Assembly: GCA_964404695.1 (NCBI GenBank)
Contig: CAYOKY010000001.1
Coordinates: 1-35,982 of the forward strand
Origin: Candidatus Micrarchaeota archaeon
GTDB taxonomy: Archaea; Micrarchaeota; Micrarchaeia; Anstonellales; JAGGVH01
Direction: 5' to 3'
Length of the DNA stretch: 35,982 bases
Shown: piece after piece, positions 15,462 through 30,646 of the stretch
Numbering within the stretch: position 1 is the stretch's first letter
How the letters are laid out: the number at the start of each line of letters is the position of its first letter
Notes under the pieces: generated by a model
What the model saw: the letters and a program-made list of their open reading frames with translations, nothing else
Told to the model about the DNA's origin: nothing
The model's database searches: none
Translations under genes and position numbers: made by a program

Positions 15462-16028
15462 TCATTTATCGTGAGGTACAGTAAAAGGTTCAATCTTTTT
15501 GACTAATACTTTTAATGCCTGTTTAATTTCTGCTTCTTCTTTACAGCCTGCGATAATAATCTTTCCGTTTTTGAAAAGTAAGAATGAACATTTAGGTTTA
15601 GGTATCCTCATAATTGCCCCAGGGAACTGTTCAGGTTCATATTCAACTTCCGGAATCTTGGTTGTTATTTTGTAAAGGTCAATCCCTACTTTTAAGTTGC
15701 CCGAACTAACAATATTGACAACAGTGTATTTTGGAACATACCTCTTGGGTACTTTGGTTTCTGAGTATGGCCCAATTAATTTAAAAGCAACTCTTAATGC
15801 TTCTTTGATTGTGTCTTCGTTTTTTGCACCTGCAACAATGACTTTGCCGTTTTTGAAAACTAACAAAGAAACCCGGGGTTTAGTAAGTTTAATGATCGCT
15901 CCAGGGAACTGTTCAGGTTCATATTCTATGTCTTCCATCTTCATTGCAAGTTTGAACAGGTCTAATGTTACGGGGATAGAGCCATAGGATACAATATTTT
16001 GAATTTCATACGTAGGTTTAATTTTCAT
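15462..16028 (-). CDS. tbp: TATA-box binding protein
   Basis: Two internal repeats (IQNIVSYGSI...EYEPEQFPGAIIKL..PRVSLLVFKNGKVIVAGAK and VVNIVSSGNL...EYEPEQFPGAIMRI..PKCSFLLFKNGKIIIAGCK). The start is re-called to ATG 16028 because the GTG at 16037 lies inside the SD AGGTGA. Confidence 0.95.
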   Translation of the reverse strand: MKIKPTYEIQNIVSYGSIPVTLDLFKLAMKMEDIEYEPEQFPGAIIKLTKPRVSLLVFKNGKVIVAGAKNEDTIKEALRVAFKLIGPYSETKVPKRYVPKYTVVNIVSSGNLKVGIDLYKITTKIPEVEYEPEQFPGAIMRIPKPKCSFLLFKNGKIIIAGCKEEAEIKQALKVLVKKIEPFTVPHDK

Positions 16029-16151
16029 AAGAATCACCTATAAGTTTATATATAACTTTTATAAGTCAATGGTAAGCTTTATAAACTGTTGGCATAAGAA
16101 ATTATTTATTAGTTTTAATATTAATTTAAGGTATAATTTAAGGTGATAATT

Positions 16152-16508
16152 ATGAAAAGATCTAAAGGTAAGTTGTGTGGCAAAACACGAACAATGGCAA
16201 GAGGTATCAAGGTAATTACTGTTAATCAACATTTTAAGACTTTTGAACCCGGTGAGAGTGTATTGCTTAAGTTTAAACCAAAAGATATGTTAAAATATCC
16301 ACATGCGAGATTTAATAAAAAGCACGGTGTAATTGTCAATAAACAGGGTAATGCTTACAAAGTTAAACTTAAGGATGGCAATAAAATAAAGTATTTGGAT
16401 ATTACACCCATACATTTGGAACGTTCAGTTTCAAAAGCTCCGAAAACTAAAACTGCTAAGGTAAAAACTGAACCTAAAACTAAACCTAAATCCGAGGCGA
16501 TTAAATGA
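16152..16508 (+). CDS. rpl21e: 50S ribosomal protein L21e with Lys-rich C-terminal extension
   Basis: MKRSKGKLCGKTR..., FEPGESVLLKF, YPHARFNKKHGVIVNKQGNAYKV and ITPIHLE. The start is re-called to ATG 16152 because GTG 16143 is inside the SD GGTGAT. The stop overlaps the rpoF ATG (ATGA). Confidence 0.85.
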   Translation: MKRSKGKLCGKTRTMARGIKVITVNQHFKTFEPGESVLLKFKPKDMLKYPHARFNKKHGVIVNKQGNAYKVKLKDGNKIKYLDITPIHLERSVSKAPKTKTAKVKTEPKTKPKSEAIK

Positions 16509-17161
16509 TTGGTGAAGAAGTAATATCTAAACGTAAGGTGTCTGTAGTAGAAACATTAGACTACCTGAATGAACGTAAAAAGATCGGTGCATTATCCTAT
16601 GAACAACAGACTAGTTATGATTATTGTAAGAAGTTTAGTTATTTGCCCAAAGAGCAGGTTAAAGAACTCATTGCGAAATTGATGGAAAAGGGATTGCCCG
16701 AGGATATTGCTGTTAATATTGCAGATGTTTTTCCTGGTCATGAATCTACATTAAGTGTTATTATTTCTAAACATACTGTTGATATTAAAGAAATTCAGGC
16801 AATTTTGGATGAATATCGTGAGATTTCTAAAGAGTATAGGCAAACATTAGATATTGAAATCATTGAAGAAAAAGAAGCAAAGGATAATGAAGCCAAGGAA
16901 AAAGAAGCCAAGGAAATTGAAGATAAGGCCAAGGCAAGTGAAGTTGAGGATACCGCTGAAGTTGAGGACAAAGAAAAATCTAAGGAAACTGCGGACAAAT
17001 CTAAGGATAAAATAGTTGAAACTGAAGAAAAGGTTAAAATCAAAACTAAAGCTAAGGCAAAATCTAAAACAAAAAAACAACCTGAATCTGATGAAGCTGA
17101 ACCGGTTAAGAAACCCAAAAAAGCCAAAAAAGCCAAAAAAGTGAAGAAAGCTAAGGAATAA
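16505..17161 (+). CDS. rpoF: DNA-directed RNA polymerase subunit Rpo4/F with about 110-aa K/E-rich tail
   Basis: The N-terminal ~105 aa (VSVVETLDYL...SYEQQTSYDYCKKFS...VKELIAKLMEKGLPEDIAVNIADVFP) resembles archaeal RpoF. Its position between L21e and DUF655 matches the conserved archaeal gene order. The tail is EKEAKDNEAKEKEAKEIEDKAK...KKPKKAKKAKKVKKAKE. Confidence 0.75.
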   Translation: MIGEEVISKRKVSVVETLDYLNERKKIGALSYEQQTSYDYCKKFSYLPKEQVKELIAKLMEKGLPEDIAVNIADVFPGHESTLSVIISKHTVDIKEIQAILDEYREISKEYRQTLDIEIIEEKEAKDNEAKEKEAKEIEDKAKASEVEDTAEVEDKEKSKETADKSKDKIVETEEKVKIKTKAKAKSKTKKQPESDEAEPVKKPKKAKKAKKVKKAKE

Positions 17162-17368
17162 TCTTTTTGTTAAAAAGCAAAAGAATAAAAAACCTGACTT
17201 GTTATTAATGATATATAAGGAAACTATAAACTATTGGAAAATAGATAAATATAAATTATAGGTAAAGTAAATAATATAAATATATGAAAAAAATTTATAT
17301 GGGAATATAAACTATGAGAAAAATAGGATAATGTCTCTGAGAAATAAAATTATATATAGGTGGAAAAT

Positions 17369-17920
17369 ATGATGATGGAAGAATATGGTTATGTATTGGA
17401 CTTTATGCCGGAAGGAAGACATTCGGAAGGGTTAAGGGAACCTATAGCTTATGTTATTGGTGAATCATATTTTACTCCTTTGGAAGTTAGCATTAAACCT
17501 GATCTTGATATTAAATTGGAAAGTCGTATAGTTGTTGGGAGAGATGACAGGGAACAGGTTTTAAGGATTAAAAGAAGGGTAGGCTATGATGATCTGACTT
17601 CAACTGCGAGAAATACGTTGGAAAGGATAATCTCAGTTATTGTTGAGAAAAATGAACAAAAGTTTGTTGAATTTGTAAACAAATGTGGTCCAATCACTAT
17701 GCGCCAACACCAGATTGAACTTTTACCTGGCATTGGCAAGAAGCATATGAGAGAAATATTAGATGAGCGTGACATTAAACCGTTTGAAAATTTTGAGGAC
17801 ATGAAGGAAAGGCTGACGCTTTTCCCGGACCCTTTACAGATGTTTTCACACAGGATTTTAATGGAACTTAAAGGCGAAGATAAATATTTCCTGTTTGTTA
17901 AACCGTATCATAAGCAGTAA
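17369..17920 (+). CDS. DUF655 family protein (OB fold plus helix-hairpin-helix, putative RNA/DNA binding)
   Basis: YGYVLDFMPEGR...EPIAYVIGESYFTPLE and ...FVEFVNKCGPITMRQHQIELLPGIGKKHMREILDER..KPFENFEDM...DPLQMFSHRILMEL. The start is re-called to ATG 17369 because GTG 17360 lies in the SD AGGTGG. Confidence 0.85.
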   Translation: MMMEEYGYVLDFMPEGRHSEGLREPIAYVIGESYFTPLEVSIKPDLDIKLESRIVVGRDDREQVLRIKRRVGYDDLTSTARNTLERIISVIVEKNEQKFVEFVNKCGPITMRQHQIELLPGIGKKHMREILDERDIKPFENFEDMKERLTLFPDPLQMFSHRILMELKGEDKYFLFVKPYHKQ

Positions 17921-17933
17921 GTTGTTCACCGGA

Positions 17934-17961
17934 TTTTTTTAATTTTTAATTTTCTTTTTTT
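17934..17961 (+). terminator. Oligo-T termination region after the DUF655 gene
   Basis: T7 (17934-17940), T5 (17943-17947) and T7 (17955-17961), all within 45 nt of the stop. Confidence 0.4.
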
Positions 17962-18021
17962 CTTTGTTCCAACTTCTTATTTTCATATCTCCTTTTGTTG
18001 TTAAAAATGGTTAAAAGAAAG

Positions 18022-18030
18022 GTTTAAATA
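18022..18030 (+). promoter_or_regulatory. TATA-like box GTTTAAATA for the 1711-aa gene
   Basis: Preceded by a purine-rich AAAGAAAG (BRE-like), about 45 bp upstream of ATG 18070. SD AAGGTGAT lies at 18058-18065. Confidence 0.35.
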
Positions 18031-18069
18031 TCCCTCTCCACATACTTTATACTATAAAGGTGATTATTT

Positions 18070-21000
18070 ATGGCTAGAAATGATGGCGACCCCCCAAATG
18101 ACGAATCTGGTAATTCCAGTGAAGTCACTGATAGACGTTTTGATGAAGAACAACAATTATGGATTATTAGAACTTATTCAGATGAAACCAAATCCAGGAT
18201 AACAAAAACTGTATTTTTTAATCCTGATAATGTAAAAACAGGAATGAGGGAAATGTATTCAGATGATAGAACCAAGTATACTCATTATTACAATGACGGG
18301 TCAATAAGAACAGAAACCATTTATTCTGCAGAAGGCAAAGAAAGATATTTTGACGATGGTATTCTAGAAAGTCGTATTAATTATTCTAATAATGGCAAGA
18401 AATATGTAATGCATGAATATTACCCTGGCGGAAATGATAAAACTGATATCCATTATCATGATGACGAAACTGTAAGTTCTATAACTAATTACAATCCTGC
18501 CGGCAAAAAACAAAGTAGTATTCGCTATAATGAAGAAGGCAAGAAAACTTCTGAAGATGGATATTATCCAGATGGAACCAGACAAATAGAGACATTTTAT
18601 AATGATGATGAAACTGTAAACTTCATAAACTATTTTTATCCAAACGGCAAAAAAAGCAAATATGTTTCTTATCATAATGGTGAATCTTTAAGTAGTGAAA
18701 CAGAGTATAATGAGCAAGAAGAAAAAATCCAGGTTATTAATTATTATGATGATAGGTCTAAATCAGTTGAAAATTATGAGTATACAAGTGAAATGACTAT
18801 AACAACGACAACAATGTTTAATACTGACGATGAGCAAATCAAGATGGAAGTTGAAACCCGTAAAAATGATGACAATTTTATTGGAGAACTAATTGCAAAA
18901 CGGGTATATGATAAAGGGGTCTTGACATACAATTTTGTAACTGGTTTGGATACTGGTTCTGTGTCAACTGAGTTTTATTATAAACCTGATAGCAATGTCC
19001 CTTCGTTTGTAAAAAGATTTGATGATTTGAATGGAAATGTTAGAAAGTTACAGTTTGATGTTCGTGAAGAAAATAATAATTTCTTTAATAATTTTTTTAT
19101 AAATGAAAATAATATTCAATATGCTTATTATCATAATAAACAAGGGAAATTGAATAACATTGTAATTAGAACCTATAAACAAGTTGAAGGATCAGAAAAG
19201 CCGGTTGTGGTTAAATACGAGGATATTAATATGTCTTCAGGCAAAAAAACAACCCAAGAATATAATGATGATGGCACTAATAAGGGAAGAAAACTGAAAG
19301 AGAAATTAACTGCAGAAGCAATTAATGATTTTAAACAAAATTTATATTCTGTGTATGAAGAAGTAAAACCTGAGCTTGAAGCTTTTGCTGACAATCTTTT
19401 TATTATTACAAGTAAAAAGGTTGATGTAAGCATTTTGAGTTATGAGGCACATAACAAGGAAACTGAAATTTTTGTTGCTGAACAAAAAAGAAAAGAAACT
19501 GTCAAAGTAAATAACACTGAATTGAAAAGGCTTGGGAATGAGTTGGCAGAAATAGTTGCTAAAAGAACTTGGGAAGATTATCCTAACCTGGTTAATAAAA
19601 TCAAGGAAATTAAGAAAATTGCGGAAATAGGTGTTGAAAACAATTCTAAGCCGGCTAAGAAAATATTAAAGAAACTTGATTGGATATTGTTTGCTATTGA
19701 TGAACATGAACAAATGGCTGGCGATGTAACATCTATTCCTAAAAATAAACTTAGGGCAGATATTGTTTCTGCTGTTGAGAAGATTCCTACTTACATTGAT
19801 AAAGTTGTAACTAAATCTGAAGATACAAGAACTACTGGGGAGAAATTAATGCAGTTTATGAAACAACCCAGAACCTTTAGAAAACGTAAACCAGTGGACA
19901 CATTTGAGGAAGTAAATAAAGAAGTAAATGAAGAAGTAGTATTACCTGTAGGTGATGCAGTTGTTGCTGCAGTTGTTGGTGCAGTACCTGTAGAAGCACC
20001 TGTTGATACAGTATCTGACCCTATAGCTGAAGTAGTAGAACCTGTAGATAAAACTCCCGTAGAACCAACAAAACCAAGTGATAAAACACCTATTATTATT
20101 GCTGTTCCTGAAACTGATATCGAGCTTGCTTCTATTTTAAGTGCAGAAGATGGTTTGGAAAAGTATGATCTTTTACAGCAATGGGTTGAAAGGAAATATC
20201 TTTTGGCAACCACTCTTAATGACGTTGAACGAAAGTTGAATGAAACACTTAGGTTGAACGATGCAAACTATGCAGATTTACTTTTGGAAAATTTAAATGA
20301 CACTAAACAAATGCTTGATTCTGAAGATGCAAGTATCTTTGAAGATAGAATAAAAGATCTGATTAAATCTGTTAATGGTAAAAAGGAAAAGGAATTGTCT
20401 TCATCTAACGCTACAGATCTATTTAATTATGAAATAAAATTATTTGACGACCTAGTTGGTTCAATACGAAAAAGTAAAATCGAAAATGCTGAAAATATTT
20501 TATTGTATTTCAAGGGTCAAATTGAAACAATATACAATGATATAAATGATTTGGGTGCATATACTGAAGAAAAAGTAGATGGTAAAGAAAAAGTAGAAAA
20601 AATTGCAGAGGTTTATATTGACCAAACAAAATTAGATAAATTGTCAACAGTTGTCATTAAAACATGCGGTTTGATAAATAATATGCATCTTAATTCCAAA
20701 TCTGTAAAGGGATATCAGAAACTTATTGACAACATTCTTCAATGCAAGATTAGTTTGAATGATCTGCCTCCCACTAATACAAATGGAATTAAGAAAGAAA
20801 CCTTGAAAATGGTTAATTTATTGAAAACTGCCGCCGGTGAAAAGAAAATTAAACCTGTTAAACCTAAAAAAGAAAAAAATAAGAACGCTGAAAAAGCAGA
20901 AAAACTTGAAGTTGAAGTTGTATTTAATTCAAATGAATTTGAAGTTTTCAGTAAGTTTGCTGACCTTTTGGTTGCAAAGGAAAAGCTCAAAAAATCAAAG

Positions 21001-23205
21001 TATGACAAAGAAGTGCTTGCAAAAGAGCAGGACATTAAGAAGGAATTTACAGCAGTTTTGGATGGAAAAGTAAGTAGTTTAGATTCAGACCATAAAAATG
21101 CAGTTATGTCAAAAGCGTTTAAGTATGTAGCACTGGAAATGAACGAAAAGAGAAATCAGGATAACCGATTATTGTATGGGATTGGCAGAAAATTAAGGAC
21201 TGTCCCAGGGATTGCAATTACTATTGCAGTTGGAATAGCAGGTGTTGCACTTGCTCCTGTTTCTGTTGGCGCTTCAGTTGGGTTGCTTAGTGTTTATGCA
21301 CTTGCAAGAGGAGTATCAACTTATATGGGTGTTAACGGTATCATGACTGCTGTCCATAGGGGAATAAGACAAAAAACAGGCGACGTAACCAAAAGGTTGG
21401 GCGCGTCTATCATGTATGGTGTTGATAACAAAGGCGTTAATCAAAACATTGGAAAAAACGTGTCCCTTGTAACTGGCGCAATAAACAGTGCTGTTGAAGA
21501 TGTAGTTGATAAAACAGTGGATGCTGTTGGAGATGCAGTTGATAAAACATCGGGCGTTGTTGGAGATGCAGTTGATAAAACAGTGGATGTTGTTGAAGAC
21601 ACTGCAATTAACGTTGAAAACATTGTTAATGGAATTACTGATTACGCAACCAAGTTTAGAAATTATAAGATCATCAGGCATAGTGTTGGTGCAGTTGCCG
21701 GAATTGCAGCAATATTTTCCGCAAATACATCAGCGAATAATGTCTTTGATTATGCTAAGGATGTAATTGAAAAAGGCCCGATCCAGGCTACAAAAGATGT
21801 AATCGTTGAGGGAGTCCACAACTGGTCATTATTCTTTAAGAAGATGTTTGGCAAAGCAGAAGTTCCCTCAGTTGCTAACGCGGACAGTTTAATTGTTAAT
21901 GATTCAATACATCAAGGCAATATAATTGCTGTATCTAAAGAAGGTTTAGATGTAGCTTCAAAGGGAAGTTTAGATGTAGCTCCAAAGGGAAGTTTAGATG
22001 TAGCTCCAAAGGGAAGTTTAGATGTAGTTCCAAAGGGAAGTTTAGATGTAGCTTCAAATGGAAGTTTAGATGTAGCTTCAAATGGAAGTTTGGGTGTAGT
22101 GTCAGATACTCCTGGAATAGTGCCTAACGAAACTATAACTCCTAGTTCATCTAATGATTCCTTACTTGCACGGGCAAAGGAGTCTTTAATGCAAAAGTTC
22201 TTCCCAGATTCCGATGCATCAGTTGGGAATGTCAATGATATAATTATTTCAGGGGATCCAGTTGTTGCACCTAATTCAGTTGTTGTATCTACTCCAGTTG
22301 TTACACCTACTCCAGTTCCAGTTGTTGCACCTAATTCAGTTGTTGTATCTACTCCAGTTGTTGCACCTACTCCAGTTCCAGTTGTTGCACCTGTTGATAC
22401 TCCTCTTACAAATGTTCCAACTAGCGCAGATTCAGTTACACAGGTACAGACCAGTATGTTAAAAAAAGTGTTTGATAAACCTGCCCCTGGTTCTACAGTT
22501 GTTACAGGTGACTTAGGATTGTCGCAGATAGTTTTGGGTGACTCTCCTTTAGGTGATTCTGCAAATATTTTGGATACAACTGGATTGACAGGTGCACAAT
22601 TAGGTGATACATTATCTGATTCAAGTTTAGTTACAGGTTCAATTGATACACTGCATACTGATACTATTACAAACATTGATTCAGGTTCATTTGTGAGTGA
22701 TGTTGATACCATTATCCCTGCTGATACTATTGCAGGCCTTGATAGTCCTACACCTTTAGACACTACTATTCCTGTGAAGGGAGCAGTTGATGTGTTTAAT
22801 GGAGATAGTGGTGTTGTAAATGTTGTTATGCCTACTGCTACGGCTCAAGTGCTAGAATTTACTGCACATGAAGGCGATGGCATTTGGGATTTATCAGATC
22901 GTGCTTTGAAGTTCCATTTTGGTGAAGCTTACACCAATCTTTCTGCTGGCGACCAAAACCTTTTGACTGACCGTCTTAAAGATGTGTTTGTTGACAATCC
23001 TGGGCTAATTGGCCTGGATACTACTGAAATTTATACTTCTCCAAATCTGGATGGGATAGGTCTTAGGTTACATGCAGTTGCAGAAAAACTTGTGGACAAA
23101 GAAATGATTGACCAGGCGCTTGGTATATTCAAAAATAAGCTTGGTAATACTGCAAAAGTTGCAGGTAATCTTTCCAAGGTAACCAAGGTAAAGATGGGCG
23201 CTTAA
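18070..23205 (+). CDS. Giant (1711 aa) multi-domain membrane protein: MORN-variant/YwqK-like repeats, long helical region, internal TM helices, repeat-rich C-terminal half
   Basis: Uninterrupted 5.1-kb ORF with its own SD, promoter-like box and flanking T-tracts. No N-terminal signal peptide. About 23-aa Y..(N/D)G...Y repeats lie at roughly 18200-18800. The middle is K/E-rich helical. A P/V-rich spacer lies at roughly 19930-20110. Hydrophobic helices lie at roughly 21200-21345 and 21679-21725. Tandem peptide repeats follow downstream. Confidence 0.85.
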   Translation: MARNDGDPPNDESGNSSEVTDRRFDEEQQLWIIRTYSDETKSRITKTVFFNPDNVKTGMREMYSDDRTKYTHYYNDGSIRTETIYSAEGKERYFDDGILESRINYSNNGKKYVMHEYYPGGNDKTDIHYHDDETVSSITNYNPAGKKQSSIRYNEEGKKTSEDGYYPDGTRQIETFYNDDETVNFINYFYPNGKKSKYVSYHNGESLSSETEYNEQEEKIQVINYYDDRSKSVENYEYTSEMTITTTTMFNTDDEQIKMEVETRKNDDNFIGELIAKRVYDKGVLTYNFVTGLDTGSVSTEFYYKPDSNVPSFVKRFDDLNGNVRKLQFDVREENNNFFNNFFINENNIQYAYYHNKQGKLNNIVIRTYKQVEGSEKPVVVKYEDINMSSGKKTTQEYNDDGTNKGRKLKEKLTAEAINDFKQNLYSVYEEVKPELEAFADNLFIITSKKVDVSILSYEAHNKETEIFVAEQKRKETVKVNNTELKRLGNELAEIVAKRTWEDYPNLVNKIKEIKKIAEIGVENNSKPAKKILKKLDWILFAIDEHEQMAGDVTSIPKNKLRADIVSAVEKIPTYIDKVVTKSEDTRTTGEKLMQFMKQPRTFRKRKPVDTFEEVNKEVNEEVVLPVGDAVVAAVVGAVPVEAPVDTVSDPIAEVVEPVDKTPVEPTKPSDKTPIIIAVPETDIELASILSAEDGLEKYDLLQQWVERKYLLATTLNDVERKLNETLRLNDANYADLLLENLNDTKQMLDSEDASIFEDRIKDLIKSVNGKKEKELSSSNATDLFNYEIKLFDDLVGSIRKSKIENAENILLYFKGQIETIYNDINDLGAYTEEKVDGKEKVEKIAEVYIDQTKLDKLSTVVIKTCGLINNMHLNSKSVKGYQKLIDNILQCKISLNDLPPTNTNGIKKETLKMVNLLKTAAGEKKIKPVKPKKEKNKNAEKAEKLEVEVVFNSNEFEVFSKFADLLVAKEKLKKSKYDKEVLAKEQDIKKEFTAVLDGKVSSLDSDHKNAVMSKAFKYVALEMNEKRNQDNRLLYGIGRKLRTVPGIAITIAVGIAGVALAPVSVGASVGLLSVYALARGVSTYMGVNGIMTAVHRGIRQKTGDVTKRLGASIMYGVDNKGVNQNIGKNVSLVTGAINSAVEDVVDKTVDAVGDAVDKTSGVVGDAVDKTVDVVEDTAINVENIVNGITDYATKFRNYKIIRHSVGAVAGIAAIFSANTSANNVFDYAKDVIEKGPIQATKDVIVEGVHNWSLFFKKMFGKAEVPSVANADSLIVNDSIHQGNIIAVSKEGLDVASKGSLDVAPKGSLDVAPKGSLDVVPKGSLDVASNGSLDVASNGSLGVVSDTPGIVPNETITPSSSNDSLLARAKESLMQKFFPDSDASVGNVNDIIISGDPVVAPNSVVVSTPVVTPTPVPVVAPNSVVVSTPVVAPTPVPVVAPVDTPLTNVPTSADSVTQVQTSMLKKVFDKPAPGSTVVTGDLGLSQIVLGDSPLGDSANILDTTGLTGAQLGDTLSDSSLVTGSIDTLHTDTITNIDSGSFVSDVDTIIPADTIAGLDSPTPLDTTIPVKGAVDVFNGDSGVVNVVMPTATAQVLEFTAHEGDGIWDLSDRALKFHFGEAYTNLSAGDQNLLTDRLKDVFVDNPGLIGLDTTEIYTSPNLDGIGLRLHAVAEKLVDKEMIDQALGIFKNKLGNTAKVAGNLSKVTKVKMGA
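21493..21600 (+). repeat. 33-bp in-frame tandem repeat x3.3 (peptide V[EG]DxVDKTxxx)
   Basis: 21493-21525, 21526-21558 and 21559-21591 share GTTGGAGATGCAGTTGATAAAACA cores. Confidence 0.8.
21937..22104 (+). repeat. 24-bp in-frame tandem repeat x7 (peptide [KN]GSLDVA[SP])
   Basis: Seven consecutive 24-nt units, with AAGGGAAGTTTAGATGTAGCTCCA as the core. Copies 2 and 3 are identical; the others differ by 1-5 nt. Confidence 0.95.
22261..22393 (+). repeat. 60-bp in-frame tandem repeat x2.2 (peptide VVAPNSVVVSTPVV[TA]PTPVP)
   Basis: 22261-22320 and 22321-22380 differ at a single base (ACA/GCA). A 13-nt partial third copy follows. Confidence 0.95.
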
Positions 23206-23284
23206 TTTTTTCTTTTTTATTTATTGTTATTTACTTTTATTTACTTTATCCTTATTTTTATCTTCTATGTTTCATTTAGTTTTT

Positions 23285-23332
23285 ATTTTATTTTCTATTT
23301 TATTTTCTATTTTATTTTCTATTTTATTTTCT
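23285..23332. repeat. 12-bp tandem repeat ATTTTATTTTCT x4 in a T-rich spacer
   Basis: Four perfect copies, with degenerate T-rich copies on both sides (23206-23400). It probably also acts as an oligo-T terminator region for the giant gene. Confidence 0.9.
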
Positions 23333-23434
23333 ATTTTTCATTTTATTTTGTTCAATTTATTTTTTTACTTATTTCTGTTTATTGGTTTTTGTCTTTCCGC
23401 AATCAATAAAAACTAATGTAACTATTTATTTATT

Positions 23435-24250
23435 ATGCAAAAGAAGAAATCAATGGGTCAGATTTTCGCAACTGATAATTTGGCAAATCTTATAATTAAA
23501 TATATTACTTCTAAAGTTGACATTAAAGATAGTACAATAATTGAAATCGGTCCCGGGGATGGTAAACTTACAGAAAAATTATTGGAATGCCATCCAAAGA
23601 AACTCATTGCAATTGAAAAGGATTTTGAATATTCACAGTTTGTTAAGAACCGGTTCATAACTAATAACAATTTTGAAAGTATTAATGAGGACGTTTTGGA
23701 ATTTGCTCCAGAACAGGAAAAAATCAAAGTTGATTATGTTATTGGGAACTTGCCTTATAATCTATCTTCATCAATTTTGGAGCATGTTAGAGATTGGGAA
23801 TTTGATTCTGCTTTTTTTATGTTGCAAAAAGAATTTGCACAGCGTATGGTTGCAACACCTGGCAACAATTTTTCCAGGTTGTCTGCTATGACACAATACT
23901 TTTTTGATGTTAAACTTTTGAAAGTTGTATCACACAAGATGTTTATACCAAGACCAAAAGTTGATTCAGCTCTTGTTTATTTGAAAAAGGTTAATGCTAA
24001 GAGTTTAACTGAACAAGAGGAAATTTGTATTAGGAAATTGTATGTTCACCGTAAACAAAAACTGAAGAACGCGATTCAACATAGTTTTAAGGAATTGGAT
24101 AATGAGAGTTTAAAGGAATCTGATAAGATTTTACAACATCTTAATGAAAAATATACGGATGAATTGAACAGTAAACTGTTTTTATTATCTGGGTCTAAGG
24201 TTATTAATATCTGTAAAGAAATTTGTTCAATAATAGATTTGCAAGATTAA
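23435..24250 (+). CDS. ksgA: 16S rRNA (adenine1518/1519-N6) dimethyltransferase KsgA/RsmA/Dim1
   Basis: MGQIFATDN (GQ.F motif), IIEIGPGDGKLT (SAM-binding G-x-G), VIGNLPYNLSS and PRPKVDSALV. Confidence 0.9.
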   Translation: MQKKKSMGQIFATDNLANLIIKYITSKVDIKDSTIIEIGPGDGKLTEKLLECHPKKLIAIEKDFEYSQFVKNRFITNNNFESINEDVLEFAPEQEKIKVDYVIGNLPYNLSSSILEHVRDWEFDSAFFMLQKEFAQRMVATPGNNFSRLSAMTQYFFDVKLLKVVSHKMFIPRPKVDSALVYLKKVNAKSLTEQEEICIRKLYVHRKQKLKNAIQHSFKELDNESLKESDKILQHLNEKYTDELNSKLFLLSGSKVINICKEICSIIDLQD

Positions 24251-24307
24251 ATAGATTTACAAGATTGAATTGATTTACAAGAGTAAATAGATTTGCAAGA
24301 TAGTTAG
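24233..24307 (+). repeat. 18-bp tandem repeat x4 echoing the KsgA 3' end, each copy ending in an in-frame stop
   Basis: ATAGATTTGCAAGATTAA / ATAGATTTACAAGATTGA / ATTGATTTACAAGAGTAA / ATAGATTTGCAAGATAGT+TAG. Confidence 0.95.
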
Positions 24308-24340
24308 TTACTGGATTGATTAGCAGTAATAATTGATTTT

Positions 24341-24379
24341 ATTTGGCTTTAATATTTGGCTTTAATATTTGGCTTTAAT
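24341..24379. repeat. 13-bp tandem repeat ATTTGGCTTTAAT x3
   Basis: Three perfect copies at 24341-24353, 24354-24366 and 24367-24379. Confidence 0.95.
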
Positions 24380-24495
24380 AGTAATGTACTTTATAGGAGG
24401 GTGTGTATTGGTTTGACCAGATTATGACACAATACTTATAAAGGCTTTGTATTGTATTGTATGGTAGAATGTCATTCTAAAATGGAGGTAATTTC

Positions 24496-25371
24496 ATGAA
24501 ATCTAACCGTGGAAATAAAAGTACTATTTGTGGTGAGCAAACAGGTTCATCTGATACTAATTCAAATTTACATAAAACAAATTTAACTAATTTTTCTGGA
24601 CGGAAGTCTATCCGTGCATTTCATGGGCGTGCAATTAAACCTGTTGTTGCAGTTGTAGTTGCTACTATTATCGGCGCTTGTGTGTTAATTTTATCTGCAT
24701 GTTCAAAGTCAATGGGTCCAAAAGAACCTGCTGACAACGGCGTAACATTGAATGTATCTCCTGACACTGTAAAAGTTCCAAGTGCATTTGTTTTAAATAG
24801 TTTAGTTACAAATCCTGATGGTCGTATACAATTGGATGACCGACAACTTTTAGTTATATTATCACAAGGTGGGCATGCAATTGCTGAGACAACCTTGGTG
24901 CCAGATTCTACAAACACAATTATTTTAAAACCAGAGATTGTTGGTAATGGCGATATTAAATGTCGTGTTGCATTGTCTAATATTTATGAGGGCGTTTTTG
25001 AAGCTGAAGATTCAGCAACTATTGTGAACGAAACTGGCGGATGGACATTAAAACCTATTTCACATGTATCCGAAGGGTTCGTTGATACTGTTATGATTCA
25101 TGTTGCTGACAGCACAGTAGACAGCACAGCACTTGAGACAGTAACTTTGACTGTTGTTGGAATGGATGATGACAATGTTCGTTTCAAGATTACAAGTATT
25201 GATTTTGAGGGCAATGAACATATCTTGAATGATGTTATAATTTCACAGGATGAAGCAAGGTTTGAAGCTGTACCTGTTGCAGGCCCGTTCTCTGATGGAA
25301 GGACTTTATACATTTTAGGGCCGGTAATTAATCTTGATGGAACGACATCTTTTCAAGTTGTTTTATTTTAA
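24496..25371 (+). CDS. Putative surface lipoprotein or membrane-anchored beta-rich protein
   Basis: Polar N-terminus, hydrophobic helix VVAVVVATIIGACVLILSAC with lipobox-like L-S-A-C, then a beta-rich domain. SD GGAGGT lies 7 nt upstream. It is the first gene of a co-directional trio. Confidence 0.6.
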   Translation: MKSNRGNKSTICGEQTGSSDTNSNLHKTNLTNFSGRKSIRAFHGRAIKPVVAVVVATIIGACVLILSACSKSMGPKEPADNGVTLNVSPDTVKVPSAFVLNSLVTNPDGRIQLDDRQLLVILSQGGHAIAETTLVPDSTNTIILKPEIVGNGDIKCRVALSNIYEGVFEAEDSATIVNETGGWTLKPISHVSEGFVDTVMIHVADSTVDSTALETVTLTVVGMDDDNVRFKITSIDFEGNEHILNDVIISQDEARFEAVPVAGPFSDGRTLYILGPVINLDGTTSFQVVLF

Positions 25372-25411
25372 ATAATTAAAATTCAGAAATGATGATTAAG
25401 AGGGATTATGT

Positions 25412-28400
25412 ATGATATATAAAAATGTAAATTTACCAAATCTGTTGCCAATCTTCCTGATTGGGGTTTTAGTATTAGGTATCGGCATGTTAAACTTGGC
25501 AGTTGTGCCTATGCAACCGTTTAACGAAAAGATTACTGCGAAAGCTGATGTTGGCGATACTGTTAGTATTCATGATTATATAAAAACTTCAGACGATTCT
25601 GAAGACGACAGTGATATTGATTACAGTCCCCAGATAAATAAGCCTGTAGCTGTAGCAATAAACCCTCATACGCTTATTAAGAATGATTATTCAAAATATT
25701 CTTACAAACCGACAGATTCTGTGCCTAAACCTGTTACCTCTACCGGTACAGTTATCAAGCCACAGTTTTCCGTTGATAAAGATGCTTATCCTGTTAAGGT
25801 TCCTGCAATTGTTTCCCCAGTTGATTTGAATGATACTGAATGTTCTGAAGAGCCGGAAATTAATGTACATATTGCTCCAAGTTATGTTCAGGCAGGTGAA
25901 GATTTTTATGTTTACATTTATGTTCATAATTCCAACCCTCTGGATTGTGAACCTATTGAATATTCATACTCTTTGGATTTACCATCCAGATGGAGTTATG
26001 AAACTGAATCGTCCTCTTCAAATGTTATTGTGTCTTCTGGTTTAACGTCCACTATAATTGCCAGAGTTACACCTGAAAATATTTCTGGGAATTATGATTT
26101 TGATTTAATTGTTGAATATGATGGTGAAGAATACACTGATGAATTAACAGTTACTATTGATACTCGTGAACTTTCAGATATTGATTTACAACCTGATCAT
26201 GTTGACGTTTTAATCGGCGAAGAAATTAATTTTGAAGTTATCGGTTACGATTCATTTGGTAATCTGATAAACATTACTTCTGACATTTGCGAATGGGAAA
26301 CTACAACTGGCGATATTGATAACGGTGTTTTAACTGTTAACGAGTTTGTTAATGGTGAAGTTACAGTTAACTGCAGTGGTCATTCTGATGTTTCAACAGT
26401 TAATGTTACAGGTTGTTTAAGTTATGAACCTACTATTACTGTTAATGCTCCGATTATTGTACCTCAACTTGAAACTTTTGTAATTAATGTTACTATATAT
26501 AATAATGATAATGTATTGTGCGGTTGCACTAACTATTCAATTGACACAAGCCATGAATGGCATAGTTTGATTGGTGATGATCATGTTACTTTGGAAATAT
26601 GTCCAAACGAAACTGCTGATTTGACTTTAGAGTTTACTGCACCTTTGGAATCTGGCGAATATGATTACATTATCAACGTTTCAAATGTTGATGACAATTC
26701 AATTTATACTGATTATTCAAACACTTTGGTTGTAAGCAGTTCACCTGAATTATTCTTGACTGCATCAGATAATGATGTTTATTCTGGTGAATATGTTGAT
26801 TTGTATTACATTTTACAGGATTATGAAGGTAATATGTATGAAGGCGATACTGTTGAATGGACTGTTCTTAACGGTACAGTTGACGGTGATGTTTACATTC
26901 CCTCAGAATATAGTTGCAATGATACAGTTACACTTAATATTACAAAGAATGGTTTTGAATATATTAAACAAGTTAACATTAGTGTTACTAAAATTGACCG
27001 TGTTGAAATTATGCCTGCAAACACAACAGTTGGTGCTGGCAGTGTTATAGGTTATATATACAGGTTATACAGTGATTTGGATGAAGTAATTATTCCTGAA
27101 GATGATTGGTTTGCAATGTTTGATTCTCCTGCCGGTAGATTTAGTGGCAGTCAATTAAGAGCAGAAAACTTAGGTGAACATTATGTTCATGTTATGTTCT
27201 GTGCAAACGATCTTAGACCTTTGGAATTGAGAAGGGCAATGCCTGGTAGTGAATCAATGCCAATTTGCAATGGTAGGATTATTGATGGTTATACTAATGT
27301 AATAGTTAGTACTGGTACTATTGCAACTTTAAGAATTGAACCAAACACTGCGGACGTAGGTCCTGACGGTGAATTGTTTACTGCTTACGGTACCAACAGT
27401 ATGGGTGTTGAAGTTATATTCGTTGCAGACTGGACAGTTGCAGATCCTTATGTTGTCTTTACAACTCCCAATTCTACTATCAATGCAACAGCTTTAGGGT
27501 TTGAAGGCCCAACAGTTTTGACTGCTGATGTAGGTGGTGTTACAGCTGACGCTAATATTAATGTTGACGGTTTAGCTCCAAGGATTGATTATCTTAATCC
27601 TACTCCTGAAGAAGGTTTGATATATGCAAACCCAATAACTTTCAACGTTAGTGTTGATGATGCAAACCTTGTAAATGTTTATTTTGTTGTTGACGGCGTT
27701 GAATACGATGCAACTGTTGTCAGTGGTTATTCAAGTTACAGTTTAGACCTTACAAGTGGCATACATGAGTTAATAGTTTATGCAGTTGACTCGTTTGGCA
27801 ACAGGGCAGAATTGCCTGCAAAAGTGTTTGCAGTAATTGGTGATTCTCTCACTACAATTGTTGAAGATCCTGTTAATGAATCTTATATAACAACTACTGA
27901 AACTGTAAATTTTGTTATTGAAGATTTGAATGGATTAAATGAAATGAATTATTATGTTGATGGTATTTTGACAACTGAGCCGTTGATGGGCAATGACTAT
28001 GAATTGAACATAACTTTGGACACTGTTGGTGACCACGTTATTGAAATAACAGTCTTGGATGAATTGGGCATTTCAACAACATTTGTTTACATTTACCATG
28101 TTGAGCTTGCACCTGTCATTATTTTAGATGAACCTTTGGATGGTAGGTTATTGTTTGATGATACTGTTGGCATGGTTTCAGATGACATAGTTTTCAATGT
28201 TTATGATTCTGATGGTGACATTTTAGGAATCCCACAATATTCTTTTGATAATGTTACATGGTACTATTTCATGGGCATGACTGCTCCAGAATTCTGGCAG
28301 TTGCAAGGTTCAGACCTTGACCCAGTTTCACCTGGTGATGTTATAACTATTTACGTAAGCGCACAGGATGATGATCATCACTGGACTTATGAATCATTTG

Positions 28401-30637
28401 AGTTTGTAATCGTTGAGGGTGATGCGCACGTTGATATGTTGCCAATTTGTGGCAGTGAACTTATTGAAACCGATGTCATTACTATTGATGTAATCCCTGG
28501 CACTTTAATTGTTGACAATATTGGGTGGGATTATGAAATTGGTTACTTAACTGATTTCCCGATTACTGCAGAATTGTATACTGTTCCGATTAATGTTGAT
28601 ACAATTTTCTTTGATGAGAATGTTGAAGGCAACATTACATTAGGTGTAAGATGGTCTGAAAGTCACGGGTTTGACATGACTTGGTATGATTCATTCTGTA
28701 ATTATAATATTAATCACAAGCCAAACATAAATTTGACTTCACATGTAAATGGATCTAATATCTATGGTTCAACTGTCTTAGATTTTAATATTTTGGATTA
28801 TGACGGCATTGATTATGTTACATTTACATGGGACGGCATTTACGAGATTGTTGCTCCAGCACCTTATGATGTTCCTGTTGACTCAAGAATCATGGATGAA
28901 ATTGGTGAACATAACTTAACAGTTTATGTGGTTGACGCTAGTGGTCTTGCTAGAGAGAACAACAAATATTATGTATTTGATATTGTTCAGGGTCCAGGCA
29001 TAATTTGGTCTAATGAAGGCAATGCTACAATACTTATGGATGGCGATAACAATTTAGTAATTGCAGATGAAAATTTGGTTTTCAATATAACTTCAGATTA
29101 TGGCCTTGCAGTTTTAACATACCAGTTTGATAGTGGTCCAGTTAACAATTTATTGCCTTTGGAATCTGGTGAACATACAATTACTATCCCTGCAGATTAT
29201 GGTGAAACTAACATTACAATCTATGCTGGGGATGAGTACGGTTATAGTCACGAGGAAACTTATGATTTGATAATTGAACGTTATCCAAAAATTGTTTCAA
29301 CTAATCCTGCAAACGGTTTTTCAGTTGCTGGGTTGTATGACATAATCTTTGACATTGAGGACAATGATGATGTTATTGGTGAATATTACTGGAATGGTGA
29401 CGAAAGGTCAAGAGAAGTAATGTATGATGAATCTCCAGATTACTTTGTATCAACTTACAGGGCTCATCCTGACATGAATACATTGTACGTTGAGATTTGT
29501 GATGCAGATTATTACGATGTGCTTTGTATTGAACAAAACTATACTTTCATGGGCGAGCTTAATGCGCCTTGGTTTACTGTCAACACTACAAATGAATCGG
29601 TAATTGGTGTTGATGAAGTTATCAATGTTTCAAGCTATGATTCAGTTGGATTGGCATTCTTAAACTATACGTGCAACTTAACTGATTACTCTATCGCATT
29701 AAGTGGCAATGAATCAAATGACAGTTTAGAATGTTCATGGATTGAAGGCGAAAACATTGTTGACATTACTGTTGAAGACAGTGATGGTGTGACTGCAAGT
29801 GACACTTATGTGTTCTATTATGACAACGAGGCACCGCAGATTGTAATGGATTCACCCGTATATACTGATGGTATGACTATCTTGAATGGTGACTGGTTGA
29901 ACTTTAGCATAACTGATACCACAACTGTTACTGTAGTATACTGGTGGGATTTGGATTCAAATATTTCTTTAGCAGATCCTTATGACTTTACAGCACCTAA
30001 CAATCCTGGTGAACACACACTCCATGTTAATGCTAGTGACGGAAGCTTATGGAATCATAAAGAATATAACTTTGTCATAAACGGTTTGCCTAGTTTGCCT
30101 GGCAATATGACTGGTAGAGTTGTAGATACTGAAGGCGATGGTATAAATGCTTCAACTGTAATTTTAATCTATTCAAATGGTACTGTTGCAGGTACAAATA
30201 TGACCAATGATACTGGCTACTACCTATTCAATAGTTTTGATGCTGGGGCATATAGAGTTAATGCTTCAAAAGATGGCTATAAAGATAATTCAATGGCTTG
30301 GTTTATGATTGTTTCTGGTGAAGAAATGCCTGCTGATGATGATATTGAATTAGAACAATATGGTATAATTAAGGTGTATGTAAGGAATATTACTAATCCT
30401 TCAATTCCTATTGATGCAGATGGAGCAGTTGTTGAATTATGGGATTTTGATGCAGATCCTGCTATTAATAGTTCATTATATTTTTGTACTACGAATTCAA
30501 CTGGCAGATGTGAATTTGCTAACGTAGAAGCAGGTGGTTATAAAATTAATGCTTCACTTGGTACTTTAAATAGTACTTTCACTCCGTTTACTGTTGATAT
30601 CGGCGAAATAGAATCTCGTACTGTATTGATTAATTAG
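25412..30637 (+). CDS. Giant (1741 aa) extracellular Ig-like-repeat protein with N-terminal signal-anchor and two C-terminal carboxypeptidase-regulatory-like domains
   Basis: N-terminus LLPIFLIGVLVLGIGMLNLAVVP. A Big_2-like segment reads DIDLQPDHVDVLIGEEINFEVIGYDSFGN...VTVNCSGHSDVSTVNVT. At least 7 modules of about 95-100 aa end in G(E/D)H.(L/I).V.(A/V).D..G. The end reads GRVVDTEGDGINASTV...NDTGYYLFNSFDAGAYRVNASKDGY, which is CarboxypepD_reg-like. Confidence 0.85.
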   Translation: MIYKNVNLPNLLPIFLIGVLVLGIGMLNLAVVPMQPFNEKITAKADVGDTVSIHDYIKTSDDSEDDSDIDYSPQINKPVAVAINPHTLIKNDYSKYSYKPTDSVPKPVTSTGTVIKPQFSVDKDAYPVKVPAIVSPVDLNDTECSEEPEINVHIAPSYVQAGEDFYVYIYVHNSNPLDCEPIEYSYSLDLPSRWSYETESSSSNVIVSSGLTSTIIARVTPENISGNYDFDLIVEYDGEEYTDELTVTIDTRELSDIDLQPDHVDVLIGEEINFEVIGYDSFGNLINITSDICEWETTTGDIDNGVLTVNEFVNGEVTVNCSGHSDVSTVNVTGCLSYEPTITVNAPIIVPQLETFVINVTIYNNDNVLCGCTNYSIDTSHEWHSLIGDDHVTLEICPNETADLTLEFTAPLESGEYDYIINVSNVDDNSIYTDYSNTLVVSSSPELFLTASDNDVYSGEYVDLYYILQDYEGNMYEGDTVEWTVLNGTVDGDVYIPSEYSCNDTVTLNITKNGFEYIKQVNISVTKIDRVEIMPANTTVGAGSVIGYIYRLYSDLDEVIIPEDDWFAMFDSPAGRFSGSQLRAENLGEHYVHVMFCANDLRPLELRRAMPGSESMPICNGRIIDGYTNVIVSTGTIATLRIEPNTADVGPDGELFTAYGTNSMGVEVIFVADWTVADPYVVFTTPNSTINATALGFEGPTVLTADVGGVTADANINVDGLAPRIDYLNPTPEEGLIYANPITFNVSVDDANLVNVYFVVDGVEYDATVVSGYSSYSLDLTSGIHELIVYAVDSFGNRAELPAKVFAVIGDSLTTIVEDPVNESYITTTETVNFVIEDLNGLNEMNYYVDGILTTEPLMGNDYELNITLDTVGDHVIEITVLDELGISTTFVYIYHVELAPVIILDEPLDGRLLFDDTVGMVSDDIVFNVYDSDGDILGIPQYSFDNVTWYYFMGMTAPEFWQLQGSDLDPVSPGDVITIYVSAQDDDHHWTYESFEFVIVEGDAHVDMLPICGSELIETDVITIDVIPGTLIVDNIGWDYEIGYLTDFPITAELYTVPINVDTIFFDENVEGNITLGVRWSESHGFDMTWYDSFCNYNINHKPNINLTSHVNGSNIYGSTVLDFNILDYDGIDYVTFTWDGIYEIVAPAPYDVPVDSRIMDEIGEHNLTVYVVDASGLARENNKYYVFDIVQGPGIIWSNEGNATILMDGDNNLVIADENLVFNITSDYGLAVLTYQFDSGPVNNLLPLESGEHTITIPADYGETNITIYAGDEYGYSHEETYDLIIERYPKIVSTNPANGFSVAGLYDIIFDIEDNDDVIGEYYWNGDERSREVMYDESPDYFVSTYRAHPDMNTLYVEICDADYYDVLCIEQNYTFMGELNAPWFTVNTTNESVIGVDEVINVSSYDSVGLAFLNYTCNLTDYSIALSGNESNDSLECSWIEGENIVDITVEDSDGVTASDTYVFYYDNEAPQIVMDSPVYTDGMTILNGDWLNFSITDTTTVTVVYWWDLDSNISLADPYDFTAPNNPGEHTLHVNASDGSLWNHKEYNFVINGLPSLPGNMTGRVVDTEGDGINASTVILIYSNGTVAGTNMTNDTGYYLFNSFDAGAYRVNASKDGYKDNSMAWFMIVSGEEMPADDDIELEQYGIIKVYVRNITNPSIPIDADGAVVELWDFDADPAINSSLYFCTTNSTGRCEFANVEAGGYKINASLGTLNSTFTPFTVDIGEIESRTVLIN

Positions 30638-30646
30638 GTGATTAAT

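Follow-up and report, generated by a model that had tools for sequence, protein, structure and literature searches.

The contig CAYOKY010000001.1 of a Candidatus Micrarchaeota archaeon (assembly GCA_964404695.1) carries, between the genes for DUF655 and for the 16S rRNA adenine dimethyltransferase KsgA, a single gene of 5.1 kb which encodes a protein of 1711 amino acids (aa). Here, the window denotes the entire contig of 35,982 bp (about 33% GC), and the gene and its product are referred to as the giant gene and the giant protein. A first-pass annotation had described the gene as wedged into the conserved L21e-RpoF-DUF655-KsgA gene string. Comparison with related genomes, together with exhaustive protein searches, leads us to a different interpretation, to which we assign a probability of about 0.7, that this is a native, independently transcribed and hypertrophied member of a rare archaeal protein family which would have reached a permissive slot by an intragenomic move or duplication, and not on a mobile element. 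Overall, the locus is a case of ordinary lineage-specific genome plasticity; of greater interest is the protein family, a by-product of the analysis.

Genes and signals at the locus

The following features of the window are central to the analysis.

15462-16037, minus strand: TBP gene
16143-16508, plus strand: ribosomal protein L21e gene (Pfam Ribosomal_L21e, 46.8 bits), syntenic across all close relatives
16505-17161, plus strand: RpoF (Rpo4) gene whose product ends in a K/E-rich tail of low complexity (RNA_pol_Rpb4, 30 bits)
17360-17920, plus strand: DUF655 gene (Pfam DUF655, 202 bits)
17934-17961, plus strand: oligo-T tract (T7, T5, T4, T7) immediately 3' of the DUF655 stop codon, as seen in the sequence itself
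18023-18030, plus strand: TATA-like box TTTAAATA, promoter-like, for the giant gene
18057-18064, plus strand: Shine-Dalgarno sequence AAGGTGAT (GGTGAT box), 5 nucleotides (nt) upstream of the giant-gene ATG
18070-23205, plus strand: giant gene, an intact open reading frame (ORF) of 1711 aa, uninterrupted over 5.1 kb
23206-23434, plus strand: T-rich spacer of 229 bp between the giant gene and ksgA
23435-24250, plus strand: ksgA gene (Pfam RrnaAD, 140.6 bits)
24496-33010, plus strand: conserved cluster directly 3' of ksgA, encoding a membrane protein of about 290 aa (291 aa here) together with large surface proteins of 1741 and 790 aa

All four genes of the archaeal string were confirmed with Pfam, and their order and common strand are preserved; the direct adjacency of DUF655 and ksgA, within tens to about 150 nt, is lacking. 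The oligo-T tract after DUF655 is likely to be a terminator, since oligo-T signals terminate transcription in archaea, and the GGTGAT box is also found ahead of at least six other genes on the contig. Within the downstream spacer, a 12-nt tandem repeat, TTTATTTTCTAT, occurs in 5.2 copies (23275-23337, 96% matches). A scanner for sigma-70 promoters and hairpin terminators was uninformative for an archaeon. The first-pass annotation had reported an oligo-T tract belonging to DUF655, a separate promoter-like box and Shine-Dalgarno sequence for the large ORF, and a T-rich repeat spacer before ksgA, and each of these features was recovered. An open frame of this length in DNA of 33-35% GC cannot be of chance origin.

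The DUF655-ksgA junction in archaea

The junction was surveyed in five contigs from the closest relatives and in 80 further loci, with one genome taken per species. At all 15 non-DPANN loci, labelled Methanobacteriota, Euryarchaeota, Thermococci, Bathyarchaeota, Desulfurococcales or Methanomethylicota, DUF655 and ksgA are separated by 47-142 nt, which bears out the earlier statement that rpl21e, rpoF, the DUF655 gene and ksgA are usually contiguous in archaea; the corresponding distance in the window is 5.5 kb. Among Micrarchaeota, this junction is rarely kept. When the 27 loci carrying that label and at least 3 kb of downstream sequence were counted, ksgA lay within 150 nt of DUF655 in only two, and in 17 it was not found within 5-10 kb. 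The remaining loci show a 223-nt gap (one locus), a gene of about 0.7 kb in the gap (four loci, with a Yip1-like protein of 210 aa in L011, L018 and L033), an inverted ksgA behind a gene for a secreted protein of 240-280 aa (two loci) and a gap of 3.5 kb (one locus).

The five related contigs, whose DUF655 proteins are 66-76% identical to that of the window, which is itself nearest to Micrarchaeota proteins, are collinear with the window on both flanks. They share the order LysRS, TBP, L21e, RpoF, DUF655, ksgA, a gene of about 290 aa and a surface protein of about 1700 aa, and they differ from the window precisely at the DUF655-ksgA junction, where their gaps measure 80, 492, 508, 508 and 3685 nt. 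The contents of the gap at individual related loci are as follows.

L002: nothing
L001: one gene of 116 aa (9375-9725)
L005 (10603-10998) and L006: one gene of 131 aa
L003 and L004: three genes, of 134, 615 and 392 aa, with the 134-aa gene at 10616-11020 in L003

The small proteins of 116, 131 and 134 aa constitute a single family which, among the five closest relatives, fills the gap in three; it has no Pfam match and, when searched for, was absent from the window as well as from L002. We also considered whether the inserted genes of the relatives (116-134, 615 and 392 aa) were pieces of the giant gene, and they were not. Nor was any member of the giant-gene family found within 10 kb of DUF655 at the 86 other loci.

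The junction is variable, and different lineages hold different cargo there. As part of the interpretation given above, and with the same probability, we regard the DUF655-ksgA interval of Micrarchaeota as a permissive gap between transcription units in which lineage-specific genes come and go, several of them apparently encoding membrane or secreted proteins. Such a recurrent landing place provides a convenient marker locus for strain comparison. Since a broken junction is normal in Micrarchaeota, the giant gene does not represent the invasion of a core operon. The first-pass annotation had named beforehand, as an outcome that would speak against its view, a cluster that is routinely split in this lineage, and this is what the synteny comparison revealed.

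A rare archaeal membrane-protein family

A word-indexed homology search with the full protein matched only the protein itself and, with residues 1-420, nothing; low-complexity words probably swamped the candidate lists. Residues 512-1711 were used as a phmmer (HMMER) query in an exhaustive search of 1.84 billion representative proteins. The best matches were P0122 (E-value 1.7e-46), P0123 (1e-45), P0124 (1.3e-43) and P0125 (2.4e-30), and further members include P0161 (with P0124), P0126 and P0131, as well as the more distant P0138, P0140, P0141, P0144, P0146, P0152 and P0158. P0159 has only the C-terminal domain in common with the family, and some low-complexity matches to one of the tandem repeats of the giant protein (KGSLDVAP units) were also returned.

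These results place about 780 C-terminal residues of the giant protein (about 885-1711) in a rare archaeal family, of which it is by far the largest of about 14 recovered members. The family proteins carry no Pfam or NCBIfam assignment; those that are named are annotated as hypothetical proteins of Candidatus Micrarchaeota, and their gene neighbourhoods are archaeal. Alignments are collinear along the whole family. After an N-terminus that is helical and variable come the motif [FY]A-x-LL-x-AKEK, a transmembrane (TM) hairpin, LGASVMY and YATKFRxYKIxRH, which is followed by a third hydrophobic segment; a variable linker then leads into the C-terminal domain, whose pattern is GEGIWHIxERAL...IDxLKDxIxxNP...GL..EIIPRA..KGGPWL. 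The giant protein shows the core similarity and all the collinear elements, its hydropathy profile agrees with those of the other members, and in the conserved core it is 40-47% identical to P0161, P0122 and P0123.

The Candidatus Micrarchaeota proteins MCC7570245.1 (P0122, 808 aa) and MCD6226957.1 (P0161, 631 aa) align collinearly with residues of about 955-1711 and share the YADLLVAKEK motif, the TM hairpin, LGASVMY, YATKFRxYKI and the GxGIWH domain. The giant protein differs in being two to four times longer, with about 930 extra N-terminal residues, including a region of beta-hairpin repeats, and with repeat insertions that amount to about 400 residues; its linker of about 370 residues consists largely of repeats. 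Across residues 512-884 the exhaustive search matched a single fragment, P0129.

A gene fusion was considered as the origin of the N-terminal half, but the 885-aa gene that lies upstream of P0125 shows no similarity to it. A metagenome scan for closer giant-like genes with the P0129 alignment yielded nothing, and one with the family core found two contigs of P0122 only. No conserved partner gene was found downstream of the family members.

The C-terminal domain resembles LysM modules at its start, which has the strand-helix motif 'v.kGeGiWhia.r'; it differs in being about twice the length of LysM, with extra helices, and is modelled as helices and short strands. LysM modules themselves adopt a beta-alpha-alpha-beta fold and bind glycans that contain GlcNAc. 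A family profile matches the LysM modules of LytE and YaaH weakly (E 0.055-1.1), while the P0159 domain matches Pfam LysM (PF01476) with an E-value of 3e-5. A model of P0123 based on a 14-sequence alignment is mostly helical (predicted local distance difference test, pLDDT, 68.6), with the C-terminal domain at pLDDT 85-94. We conclude that these proteins define a rare and previously unannotated family of archaeal membrane proteins, characterised by a TM hairpin that is conserved and by a C-terminal domain resembling LysM. In DPANN archaea, for which, to our knowledge, very few such factors are known, they may act in the cell envelope or in contact with a host.

Family genes in relatives and the origin of the window copy

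The gene for P0122 shares a 151-kb contig with the L006 DUF655 locus, from which it is about 80 kb distant; the gene order around it is DUF373, thyX, the family gene, a gene of 208 aa and SHMT (glyA). P0161, which derives from the same metagenome-assembled genome as L003 (GCA_021158105.1), is also flanked by thyX and SHMT. In both genomes other genes still separate DUF655 from ksgA. The first-pass annotation had listed this second outcome as well, homologues at unrelated positions in relatives with DUF655 and ksgA still apart, among those that would tell against a giant gene wedged into the operon. The window copy lies away from the thyX-SHMT position, and more distant members occur in other contexts. 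We conclude that in this clade the family originally resided between thyX and SHMT and that the window copy is displaced or duplicated.

We infer that a family member left the thyX-SHMT site by an intragenomic move or duplication for the DUF655-ksgA gap, and not by way of a mobile element. It would then have gained about 930 N-terminal residues, comprising MORN/DUF2963-like beta-hairpin repeats and a helical region, and its linkers would have grown by expansion of in-frame tandem repeats. The lineage-specific innovation suggested in the first-pass annotation thus holds in a modest sense, in that size and position are specific to the lineage, while the gene itself would be a native family member that was displaced and enlarged.

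A variant of this scheme, which differs in mechanism only, as duplication and not relocation, supposes that the original copy is still present between thyX and SHMT in this genome and that the DUF655-ksgA copy is an extra paralogue free to grow. The strong divergence of the window copy from the other core sequences and its large additions would be expected of such a duplicate, and so would the substitution pattern of the only comparable fragment (L096, JGI 3300028219, 928 bp), for which the ratio of nonsynonymous to synonymous substitutions (dN/dS) is close to 1, as fits redundancy. A single family member was seen in each relative examined, however, and small genomes such as these generally retain few paralogues, so that we consider the paralogue a possible but rather doubtful alternative to the displaced copy.

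L096 is 76-78% identical in DNA sequence to positions 20037-20385, inside the giant gene. Over 104 codons of the helical region it shows a synonymous distance (dS) of about 0.33 and a dN/dS of about 0.97; upstream there is a change of frame and downstream an abrupt switch to unrelated coding sequence. The fragment represents either a copy undergoing decay or rearrangement in a closer relative or the product of a chimeric assembly, and either the helical region is near-neutral or the L096 copy is decaying. Because L096 matches the interior of the giant gene, a closer relative probably has, or had, a giant-like gene.

Transcription of the giant gene

From its own promoter-like box and Shine-Dalgarno sequence, and from the oligo-T tracts on either side, we infer that the giant gene is an independent transcription unit. 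The first-pass annotation had suggested instead that its placement in a core translation and transcription operon served co-expression with growth-rate genes. The giant gene is indeed co-oriented with the L21e, RpoF, DUF655 and ksgA genes, and archaeal oligo-T terminators are frequently leaky. Nevertheless, co-expression appears quite improbable given the TATA-like box, the Shine-Dalgarno sequence and the multiple bracketing oligo-T runs, and given that in relatives the slot is empty or occupied by unrelated genes and the family orthologues adjoin thyX; the anatomy of the locus would rather point to separate transcription.

Native or foreign origin

The codon-usage and k-mer comparison with neighbouring genes that had been proposed earlier gave native values throughout. 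The GC content of the giant gene (0.347) and its third-position GC (GC3, 0.221) are ordinary for the contig, in relative synonymous codon usage it stands at a distance of 0.119 from the remainder of the contig, where values span 0.07-0.21, and its tetranucleotide correlation is 0.936, compared with 0.84-0.89 for the conserved surface-protein gene downstream. The deviant composition or codon usage that can mark mobile elements is thus not seen, all values falling within the range of the neighbours.

The interval holds no integrase, transposase, recombinase or insertion sequence (IS) element; it consists of a single ORF in which Pfam and NCBIfam detect no such domain. No target-site duplication or att site was found, the sole flanking direct repeats being the two T-rich low-complexity terminator tracts, which are 73% alike. 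ARAGORN and Rfam called no tRNA or other RNA gene in the window, and the nearest tRNA gene (12395-12556), described below, lies 5.5 kb upstream. The earlier view that the gene lacks the marks of a classical mobile insertion (integrase, IS element, tRNA target, true flanking repeats) is therefore supported. Because GC, GC3, codon usage, tetranucleotides and the Shine-Dalgarno sequence all match the neighbours, and because the marks of mobile elements are absent, we conclude that the giant gene is native and not foreign.

The alternative of a foreign insertion, transferred horizontally on a mobile element or virus that has since decayed, could draw on the roughly 880 N-terminal residues being almost devoid of detectable relatives (none for 1-420 in the word-indexed search, and in the exhaustive search the P0129 fragment alone for 512-884), and on DUF2963 repeats being otherwise known from phytoplasma effectors. 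We regard it as highly improbable, in view of the native composition and translation signal, the missing integrase, IS element, tRNA target and genuine target-site duplication, and the 780 C-terminal residues that belong to a family present in close relatives. Least credible of all is a chimeric metagenomic contig joining unrelated DNA, even though near-perfect tandem repeats can confuse assemblers of metagenomic data, since flanks collinear with five relatives would require two precise misjoins at gene boundaries and the composition is uniform and the 5.1-kb ORF unbroken.

Architecture of the giant protein and a possible role

The elements of the giant protein, in order along the plus strand, are the following.

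18157-19329: N-terminal beta-hairpin repeat region, MORN/DUF2963-like (aa about 30-420), with a 72-nt DNA periodicity
20956-21024: family signature motif FADLLVAKEKLKKSKYDK (aa 963-985), conserved across family alignments
21193-21354: predicted TM hairpin (aa 1042-1095), Kyte-Doolittle peak 2.3-2.4, present in all family members and K/R-rich on both sides
21489-21599: 33-nt in-frame tandem repeat in 3.4 copies (DAVDKTVDVVG units), an insertion after the hairpin relative to the family
21667-21735: third hydrophobic segment (aa 1200-1222), with the motif YATKFRNYKIIRH before it, aligned across the family
21944-22099: 24-nt tandem repeat in 6.5 copies (KGSLDVAP units), 94% matches
22257-22392: 60-nt tandem repeat in 2.3 copies, a Pro/Val/Thr-rich linker, 98% matches
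22858-23139: conserved C-terminal domain (aa 1597-1690; GDGIWDLSDRAL...) with a LysM-like start, supported by HMMER matches to P0144, P0152 and P0159 and by alignments

The whole 1711-aa protein has no Pfam match, DUF2963 included. When residues 1-300 were scanned alone, DUF2963 (PF11178) was detected in four stretches at 25.8 bits, above its cutoff of 22.6, while MORN_2 (PF07661) remained below threshold (10.5 bits against 29.6). Four pieces of the protein gave nothing above cutoff with NCBIfam, and three pieces compared by sequence with the PDB found no significant match. A single-sequence AlphaFold2 model of residues 1-420 consists entirely of beta-hairpins at low confidence (pLDDT 50.6); its Foldseek matches, to engineered OspA and Rhs repeats, have TM-scores of 0.1-0.3 and show only an antiparallel beta-hairpin sheet. 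The DUF2963 domain has been described as repeats of about 26 residues which form beta-hairpins, the 'Scorpion' motif, in phytoplasma effectors (bioRxiv 10.1101/2025.07.14.664665). The giant repeats resemble these and MORN-type repeats in their length of about 24 residues, their richness in Y, D, G and N and their predicted beta-hairpins; they differ in that phytoplasma effectors are small bacterial proteins that are secreted, whereas here the repeats form the signal-less N-terminus of a large archaeal membrane protein. The near identity of the DNA repeats (94-98%) in the C-terminal linkers points to recent growth, presumably driven by slippage.

No N-terminal signal sequence was found in the giant protein, and K/R-rich segments flank the hairpin on both sides and also precede the third hydrophobic segment. 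Because of these features, and because the third segment is conserved, a topology with the N-terminus inside and the C-terminus outside is favoured. The predicted protein would begin with a cytoplasmic scaffold of about 1040 residues, followed by the TM hairpin, a cytoplasmic loop of about 100 residues and the third TM segment. Some 490 residues would then lie outside, as a stalk of Pro/Val/Thr-rich and KGSLDVAP repeats tipped by the small LysM-like domain, which is probably glycan-binding. Such a protein could tie the cell envelope, or the surface of a partner cell, to the cytoplasmic scaffold. There is some likeness to junctophilins, eukaryotic proteins with MORN repeats, a long helix and a C-terminal membrane anchor; the shared order of N-terminal MORN-like repeats, long helical region and membrane anchor suggests, by analogy only, a tether or scaffold. 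The resemblance is one of architecture, and junctophilins differ in having a single-TM tail anchor and no extracellular domain.

Taken further, the giant protein and its shorter relatives might represent an unrecognised trans-envelope tether of DPANN archaea, in which an extracellular LysM-derived tip on an extensible stalk of repeats grips surface-layer or host glycans and a junctophilin-like array of MORN-type repeats and coiled coils organises the cytoplasmic side of the contact. This broader proposal we consider speculative and, as it stands, unlikely. If it were true, rapid growth of the tandem repeats would tune the reach of the stalk.

Several observations weigh against the interpretation developed here. 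Because thyX, and with it the thyX-SHMT locus, is not on the window contig, a move and a duplication would look alike here. Parts of the added N-terminal half may be under little constraint, as the dN/dS of about 0.97 indicates. The P0123 family model found no fold match in the PDB or in the BFVD viral library, and the C-terminal domain of the giant protein fails Pfam LysM, as do 11 of 12 family domains. Both the topology and the glycan binding are predictions from sequence. In addition, the third segment is weak in the giant protein (Kyte-Doolittle peak 1.55, compared with 1.5-2.3 in homologues) and, were it not to cross the membrane, the C-terminal domain would be cytoplasmic and the tether reading would fail.

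Other features of the contig

The cluster downstream of ksgA is common to the relatives L001, L002 and L005, and its 1741-aa and 790-aa surface proteins carry CarboxypepD_reg, Big_7 and SdrD_B domains. Within this cluster, the stretch at 25-30 kb departs further than any other part of the contig in its tetranucleotide signature (r = 0.84).

The tRNA gene at 12395-12556 (plus strand) encodes tRNA-Met(CAU) and was missed by both ARAGORN and Rfam. It carries two introns, one of 54 nt after the anticodon loop (12434-12487), which holds a conserved C-box-like GTGATGA, and one of 34 nt in the T-loop (12508-12541); ARAGORN calls the tRNA once both are removed by hand. The exons are near-invariant in L001, L003 and L005. 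An ORF of 53 aa at 12128-12289 (plus strand), shorter than the usual ORF-length cutoffs, corresponds in position and sequence to a 50-aa gene of the relatives which is faintly annotated as ribosomal L40e in L001.

The RpoF protein is longer here (218 aa) than in relatives (165-203 aa). Its RNA_pol_Rpb4 score exceeds the gathering cutoff of 25.6 only when the N-terminal 115 aa are scanned alone, and the DNA of its tail holds tandem repeats of 9, 18 and 24 nt, those of the K/E-rich tail lying at 17019-17151. The intergenic spacers of the contig are also unusually long and filled with repeats relative to those of the relatives. The gap between RpoF and DUF655 (17162-17359) extends over 198 nt, compared with 12-45 nt in relatives, and includes a 25-nt repeat in 2.9 copies, and repeats of 18 nt (3.9 copies) and 13 nt (3.2 copies) follow ksgA (24232-24380). 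Together, the repeats in the spacers, in the RpoF tail and in the giant gene suggest a genome-wide tendency to expansion by slippage.

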